This document shows positions 1 to 222 of a stretch of 222 nucleotides of DNA, piece after piece. The notes below the pieces were generated by a model. That model was not told the origin of the DNA, did no database searches, and was given only the letters and a program-made list of their open reading frames with translations. The translations under genes and the position numbers were made by a program. Position 1 is the first letter of the stretch, and each line of letters opens with the position of its first letter. The stretch lies in NCBI RefSeq assembly GCF_003334335.1, contig NZ_QOWQ01000238.1. One strand, given 5' to 3'. This DNA comes from Escherichia coli (GTDB taxonomy: Bacteria; Pseudomonadota; Gammaproteobacteria; Enterobacterales; Enterobacteriaceae).

Positions 1-80
1 AATAAAACAATCATCAAATACAGAATTTTCGTAGGCTGAGGGATTGCTGAAAATAATTTAGTGCGTCCTTCAATGGTCAT
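1..80 (-). CDS. Possible 5' end of a protein-coding gene running off the window (N-terminus MTIEGRTKLFSAIPQPTKILYLMIVL...); product unknown
   Basis: The reverse complement has ATG at 80-78 followed by 26 stop-free codons to the window edge. The peptide ends in a hydrophobic stretch (ILYLMIVL) compatible with a membrane segment. Against: no Shine-Dalgarno upstream (sequence before the ATG is cagcacaatctg), G at first codon position is low (4 of 26), and the frame is also open upstream of the ATG, so the start is ambiguous. A second in-frame ATG lies at 14-12. Confidence 0.2.
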   Translation of the reverse strand, partial: MTIEGRTKLFSAIPQPTKILYLMIVL

Positions 81-118
81 CAGATTGTGCTGATGTAAAC
101 AGTTAAGCACAATTTGAT
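79..118. repeat. Imperfect inverted repeat (13-bp arms, 14-nt spacer); candidate operator or RNA stem-loop
   Basis: Read directly: 84-91 ATTGTGCT is the exact reverse complement of 106-113 AGCACAAT. Pairing extends to 79-91 against 106-118 with one G/T mismatch (83 vs 114), which would be a G-U wobble in RNA. The stem is AT-rich with only 3 G-C pairs in the perfect 8-bp core. An 8-bp inverted repeat alone is not rare in AT-rich DNA, so function is uncertain. Confidence 0.4.
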
Positions 119-137
119 TATTTGACTTTCTTCTTTT

Positions 138-153
138 TGTGACTGACTTCACA
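138..153. promoter_or_regulatory. CRP-family (cAMP receptor protein) binding site with perfect core TGTGA-N6-TCACA
   Basis: Read directly: TGTGA at 138-142, 6-bp spacer CTGACT at 143-148, TCACA at 149-153, centre between 145 and 146. This matches both consensus half-sites of the established CRP motif. The 22-bp context 135-156 is tttTGTGActgactTCACAatt with AT-rich flanks. A rough estimate puts chance occurrence of both perfect half-sites at this spacing in a window of this size and composition well below 1 in 1000. Binding is not demonstrated. Confidence 0.55.
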
Positions 154-222
154 ATTAAAGATGTAACCGTATACAAATTGTTGATGAATAAAGAGACAGC
201 ATAAGTGGCAGGCCAGTCGTAA

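Follow-up and report, generated by a model that had tools for sequence, protein, structure and literature searches.

Upstream of the genes for the Eib immunoglobulin-binding adhesins of E. coli prophages, a stretch of 222 nt (hereafter the window, numbered from its first base) carries two palindromes that share the half-site TTGTG/CACAATT around spacers of different length. This raises the question of whether one protein recognizes both palindromes or whether they are separate elements that happen to look alike. The answer we reach is largely ordinary: the window holds one conserved CRP (cAMP receptor protein) site and one lineage-specific inverted repeat. The explanation that best accounts for the data as a whole, at a probability of about 0.6, is that the window serves a prophage moron encoding Eib as its distal regulatory region, that CRP-cAMP bound at 138-153 would contribute to turning eib on at glucose exhaustion late in growth, and that the shared half-site reflects chance or local sequence reuse and not shared CRP binding.

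In every copy, the window is flanked on one side by a lambdoid-prophage gene for tail-fibre assembly (DUF4376) and on the other by the gene for a YadA-like trimeric autotransporter, which in AF151091 encodes the immunoglobulin-binding protein EibA. The start codon of eib lies 188 nt past the end of the window. The window is carried by 27 of 5426 complete E. coli genomes, at 1 to 5 places per genome, and by 8 phage records, including prophage P-EibA of ECOR-9 (AF151091, 3509-3730, 98.6% identity). The 684-nt intergenic region from the tail-fibre gene to eib (range 5729-6409 of locus L001) travels as a whole only with eib. The idea that the window marks a moron boundary, with the DNA upstream of it also found in phages that lack eib, was rejected, since this DNA was never seen apart from eib. 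Like the morons of lambdoid prophages (lom and bor of lambda; eibA/C/D/E of the ECOR-9 prophages, AF151091), eib here follows the tail-fibre genes, has its own AT-rich upstream region and is expressed in the lysogen. The AF151091 record annotates only a stem-loop (3777-3814) and neither of the two palindromes discussed here. Eib adhesins contribute to immunoglobulin binding, serum resistance and the chain-like adherence of some LEE-negative STEC, and in the literature that we reached their regulation is poorly understood.

General searches of the window returned no known class of element. The best matches to Rfam covariance models scored 12-17 bits (E >4), far under the gathering scores, and consensus scans called neither a promoter nor a terminator in the window; across the whole intergenic region, a single promoter-like site near the start codon was called and, close to the tail-fibre gene, two terminator-like sites on the minus strand. 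A minus-strand ORF of 49 aa (window 3-152, annotated in PhiR5_2) was rejected because an 11-bp indel polymorphism would put it out of frame in 18 of the 52 copies. A small plus-strand ORF, annotated in PhiR12_1, ends at window position 34. The genes 3′ of eib (ORF-156 and ORF-60), considered as local regulators, gave only PHROGs matches of unknown function. At several independent loci, IS21-family or IS1 insertions lie in or next to the tail-fibre assembly gene upstream of eib (L001 3183-5490, L003 1-1928, L005 1361-2058 and L268 1-1091), and the L268 insertion removes all DNA upstream of about −210 from the CRP site.

To compare relatives, we drew 52 distinct copies, the close family, from genomes of E. 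coli, from IMG/VR and from metagenomes; most are 92-100% identical to the window, and the least similar is at 87%. The pattern used to gather them lies about 100 nt further downstream, and sampling was thus independent of the window itself. We then added four diverged groups of eib-like upstream regions, denoted B (L013, L271, L268 and phage GER2), C (L010 and L270), D (L269) and E (L014), which together with the main family make five groups. All five have in common a conserved leader of about 190 nt, located downstream of the window, and the window portion of groups B to E is largely unalignable with that of the main family. A scan of the genome collection with the 16-mer pattern CATCAGATTTTCTTYA yielded chance matches, with no real homologue among the matches listed.

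The second palindrome of the window, TTTTGTGACTGACTTCACAATT at 135-156, has the anatomy of a CRP site, with the core TGTGA-N6-TCACA at 138-153 (centre 145.5), all 10 of 10 core positions matching and A/T-rich flanks. We scored it with a symmetrised position weight matrix (PWM) built from 20 classical sites. The site scores 18.5 bits, a value that exceeds all 20 training sites (mostly 11-17 bits, with three low scores of 3.2, 4.4 and 6.6) and was reached by 0 of 2000 shuffles. The equivalent sites of groups B, C and D score 12.9-16.9 bits, and that of group E reads TGTAA-N6-TCACA (9/10 core positions). The core is thus kept at 9/10 or better in all five groups, despite mostly unalignable flanks, and its centre lies 262-277 nt from the ATG in the four groups measured. 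Among the 52 close copies, the only variable columns inside 135-156 are 144 and 145, both in the N6 spacer. The score, the conservation in diverged relatives and the pattern of polymorphism bear out the initial annotation, which had called 136-155 a CRP site.

We consider it quite likely that 135-156 is a functional CRP site, and a plausible new member of a very well known class. It resembles the CRP-cAMP sites of E. coli (22-bp consensus AAATGTGATCTAGATCACATTT) in its perfect core, its A/T-rich flanks and a score above the classical sites, and differs from the class I, II and III architectures in standing without a mapped promoter at a canonical distance, such as a centre at −41.5, −61.5 or −71.5 from the start. 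The 79-118 palindrome falls outside this family. In the literature searched, no paper ties eib to CRP. In group B, AGTGA-N6-TCACA forms another CRP-like site, 90 bp upstream of the conserved site (L013 2127-2142, L271 1301-1316), with 9/10 core positions and yet only 5.6 bits.

Two further motifs keep a near-constant distance to the CRP core. GTAAC, an instance of a GTAAS motif, lies on the plus strand at 163-167, and GTAAS is found exactly 25 nt after the start of the CRP core in every group. The motif TAnnnTAAGA (L001 6260-6269, window coordinates 260-269) begins at +121 to +124 from the same point in all five groups; in group E both motifs were read from the sequence. T1, A2 and T6 of its −10-like hexamer are invariant, the pattern of a real −10 hexamer, and the stretch between GTAAS and TAnnnTAAGA is almost unalignable among groups. 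The arrangement of CRP site, GTAAS at +25 and −10-like motif at about +122 suggests a rigid regulatory module, which would be directly testable.

Where transcription starts relative to the CRP site may be read in two ways. In the first, 135-156 would be a class II CRP site serving a weak promoter that starts near 185-188. The candidate −10 for this promoter, TATACAAAT (170-178, plus strand), comes from a fixed-register comparison of the groups and would place the centre of the CRP site near −40. The class II candidates (TACAAAT in the main family, TGAAAT in group C, TGTCAT in group B and, at the same offset as TATACAAAT, GATAAT in group D) are weak and their register is not fixed. In the second, the CRP site would act as a far-upstream co-activator site, near −126, for the conserved −10-like element TATAGT (L001 6260-6265), 122 nt downstream. 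TATAGT is the better conserved −10-like element of the two, and a good −35 element is absent from both architectures. Co-activator geometries of this kind are those of proP P2, where CRP acts at −121.5 with Fis, and of acs P2, where it acts at −122.5 together with −69.5; if TATAGT is the −10, the eib site would resemble, among known arrangements, only co-activator cases such as these. Just upstream of TATAGT lies a perfect 10-bp palindrome, GTGATATCAC (L001 6244-6253, window coordinates 244-253), of which GATATCACC is kept in group B and not in C or D.

Published expression data are consistent with catabolite control. Eib synthesis is induced late in growth, and the proteins peak in LB static culture and are considerably lower in two media with 1-2% glucose (PMC5450701); the authors of that study read the effect of the medium as nutrient limitation and not as catabolite repression. 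If the CRP site is functional, it would provide a simple account of the response of Eib to both growth phase and medium. A deletion was complemented by a plasmid whose insert reaches only 168 bp upstream of eibG (bioRxiv 10.64898/2025.12.25.695649). This insert excludes the whole window, indicating that the window is not essential for expression from a multicopy vector.

The upstream palindrome was initially annotated as ATTGTGCT-N14-AGCACAAT at 84-113. The sequence reads exactly so, though the arms are longer: the full inverted repeat is ATCAGATTGTGCT-N14-AGCACAATTTGAT, with arms of 13 nt each at 79-91 and 106-118, a 14-nt spacer and a perfect 8-nt core (84-91 and 106-113). Its single mismatch, G83/T114, corresponds to a G·U pair on the plus strand and to A·C on the minus strand, and the predicted folding energy of 79-118 is −16.5 kcal/mol (z −4.4) for the plus strand and −11.4 for the minus strand. 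An 8-nt perfect arm with a spacer of at most 30 nt occurs in 16% of dinucleotide shuffles of the window, and a 13-nt arm with one mismatch in 0.4%. A nested mini-palindrome, CATCAG-ATTGTG-CTGATG (78-95), overlaps the left arm, and this arm shares CATCAGAT with a leader hairpin, ACATCAGAT-N11-ATCTGATGT (L001 6336-6364).

The 79-118 palindrome is real but lineage-specific. The run 79-122 is the longest invariant run among the 52 close copies, with variation beginning at its left edge, position 78; at a rate of about 9.5% variable columns, we estimate that an invariant run as long is expected in about one third of such alignments. Arms and 14-nt spacer show the same invariance, and the alignment therefore offers neither covariation nor an arm-versus-spacer contrast. 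When sought in groups B to E, the repeat was absent as a palindrome, leaving it confined to the close family, and the equivalent place in the diverged upstream regions does not hold it as it would a conserved eib regulatory element. Group C has a local similarity to window 60-137 (P ~0.003), which extends over the spacer and outer right arm (GCTGAnnTAAACAGTTAA....ATTTTGAT) and leaves out the inner arms; local alignment of the same region to groups B, D and E gave no significant similarity. A homology of the palindrome in groups B and D picked out by eye (ATTGTG..AAACAG..GCAAT) was dropped after local alignment against shuffles (P 0.45-0.6). The recurring AAACAG stands at offsets of −23 to −123 from the CRP site across groups, a variation that leaves nothing phase-locked to CRP. 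Comparison of orthologous regions therefore separates the two palindromes, with 138-153 kept in five groups and 79-118 in the close family only, the outcome that the initial annotation had named as telling against its pairing of the two.

The shared half-site is present as described, with CACAATT at 108 and 150 and TTGTG at 85 and 137, and the palindrome centres, at 98.5 and 145.5, are indeed 47 bp apart. A repeated 7-mer alone is expected by chance, at about 3 pairs per 222 AT-rich bases by our estimate, and a second one is found in the direct repeat GATGTAA (plus strand, 92-98 and 160-166), whose second copy overlaps the GTAAS motif. When the 134 nt that precede the CRP site are shuffled, 0.18% of the shuffles yield an inverted repeat that contains TTGTG/CACAA and has arms of 8 nt or more, and TTGTG-N4..30-CACAA occurs twice in the whole 54-kb eib phage, both times inside the window. 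On the shuffle rate and the phage-wide count, the resemblance exceeds naive chance, at about 0.2-0.5% under shuffling in a test designed after the pattern had been seen. We find no evidence for a protein that binds both palindromes, and a real link between them may exist. The same phage holds no second copy of the 79-118 palindrome. The 11-mer half-site CAGATTGTGCT occurs once more there, in tail tip assembly gene I (PV340549.1 42128-42138; ~0.03 expected), and ATTGTGCT has 4 further occurrences (~1.7 expected); none of these extra occurrences is palindromically arranged.

The favored explanation thus treats 79-118 as a separate element that would not be a CRP site, would be confined to one eib lineage and would have an accessory role at most. 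It may act as a hairpin in plus-strand read-through RNA, serve as the site of a further factor, or be neutral.

The first of these possibilities would make the palindrome an RNA insulator, weak terminator or stabiliser for read-through transcripts of the phage late operon or of a weak upstream promoter (AATAAT, 52-57). The sole mismatch fits such a hairpin, pairing as G·U on the plus strand and failing as A·C on the minus strand (−16.5 vs −11.4 kcal/mol), although in any stem half of all transitions give a G·U pair on one of the strands. A U-rich tract (119-137) follows the stem. As in intrinsic (Rho-independent) terminators, a stable hairpin thus precedes a U-rich stretch, but where these have a G+C-rich stem, a loop of 3-8 nt and a run of T directly behind it, 79-118 has a 14-nt loop, few G-C pairs (4 of 13) and an interrupted U tract, and as an intrinsic terminator it was rejected, with no call from the terminator scan. 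The surrounding region is enriched in hairpins of similar geometry: in L001 5729-6409, 3 perfect inverted repeats have arms of at least 8 nt separated by 11-16 nt, where dinucleotide shuffles predict 0.21 (P = 0.002). They are the 79-118 palindrome, the stem-loop that AF151091 annotates (GAAATTCCGAA-N16-TTCGGAATTTC) and the leader hairpin ACATCAGAT-N11-ATCTGATGT, with which 79-118 shares CATCAGAT in its left arm. The leader hairpin, ACATCAG..CTGATGT in the main family, becomes GTGTCAG...CTGACAC in group D (L269 ~1590-1620) in the same ungapped 29-nt register, and these three double compensatory changes suggest that hairpins matter in the leader. For 79-118 itself, covariation is absent because the palindrome does not vary, Rfam gives no match to the window, and the repeat lies upstream of every plausible eib promoter. 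Taken together, we regard an RNA role for the palindrome as tentative and rather doubtful.

In the main-family leader, the stem at L001 6336-6364 carries an A·C mismatch in 49 of 52 copies. RNAalifold returned only a weak consensus for the leader (−4.3 kcal/mol), in part owing to a misalignment of group D by MAFFT. Long-range complementarities linking the window to the segment ahead of the ribosome-binding site were mutually overlapping and within chance expectation by our own estimate, and were set aside.

The palindrome could instead be the operator of a non-CRP dimeric or tetrameric regulator of one eib lineage, with CRP acting 47 bp downstream; the regulator might be IbrAB, a ParB-like protein paired with a PAPS-reductase-like protein, or another phage or host factor. 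The rarity of its 13-nt arms by chance (0.4%) and its invariance in 52 copies, with variation starting at position 78, argue for such a site, as does the 22-bp centre-to-centre distance between its TGTG and CACA cores, about two helical turns, which would put both on the same face of the helix. Expression of eib requires the genes for IbrAB (Sandt et al. 2002, as cited in PMC7649339), and the literature that we reached describes no cis site for them. Against an operator, the four other eib groups keep the CRP site and the leader motifs and do not conserve 79-118, the 54-kb phage has no second copy, and the spacer is as invariant as the arms, with no contrast between the two. On balance we find an operator unlikely, and its most specific form, in which IbrAB acting at 79-118 and CRP 47 bp downstream would together switch on eib in main-family prophages, very unlikely. 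If true, this form would provide the first DNA target for an enigmatic regulator pair. The palindrome gains importance only as the target of a lineage-specific regulator, for example IbrAB; failing that, it is an ordinary inverted repeat.

Comparison by eye with the consensus sequences of IHF, FNR, PhoP, ArcA and TyrR gave nothing convincing. The best resemblance was TGTAAA-CAGTTA-AGCACA at 94-111, which matches the TyrR box consensus (TGTAAA-N6-TTTACA) at 9 of 12 positions and keeps G2 and C17.

The initial annotation had also read 84-113 as a CRP-type site with a 16-bp gap, perhaps a degenerate or duplicated one, and there is only a slight chance that it still binds CRP, for example as one dimer per arm on a TGTGC half-site in tandem control. 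In favor, TTGTG(A)CTGA and CACAATT appear in it in the order that they have in the true site, a co-occurrence improbable by chance, and the second CRP-like site of group B shows that tandem sites do occur among eib upstream regions. Against it, its two best 22-mers reach 5.4 and 4.9 bits, whereas shuffled windows have a mean best score of 6.2, and these two 22-mers overlap by 12 bp, so that both cannot be occupied. Its pentamers TGTGC and GCACA are spaced by 16 nt where a CRP site has 6, and the 47-bp centre distance puts it on the opposite helix face from the CRP site. Of the three alternatives offered at the outset for this palindrome, the degenerate CRP site is hence the least likely.

Several smaller features vary among the copies. 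An 11-bp unit, TTCAATGGTCA (69-79, plus strand), abuts the 79-118 palindrome; 34 of the 52 distinct copies have a single unit, 17 have two and 1 has three, each added unit amounting to one helical turn. Window positions 1-20 fall into two sharply different haplotypes, AATAAAACAATCATCAAATAC and AATTAAACATTCAGGGGATAC, each in about half of the 52 copies, a pattern that suggests recombination with a breakpoint near position 20. In alleles that have gained about 115 nt by an insertion upstream of the window, AATACAGAATTTTCGTA exists in a second exact copy (L003 2830-2870), which sits inside a palindrome with 9-bp arms, ATGCAATAC-N9-GTATTGCAT; the window's own copy (17-33) is a degenerate version. 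Nearer to the gene, a 12-bp palindrome, TTTGTATACAAA (L001 6374-6391), lies 25-35 nt before the start codon and is conserved in groups B, C and D; its form in the main family and group E is TTTGTATACAGA. One half of this palindrome, GTATACAAAT, recurs in the window at 169-178, in the main family only.
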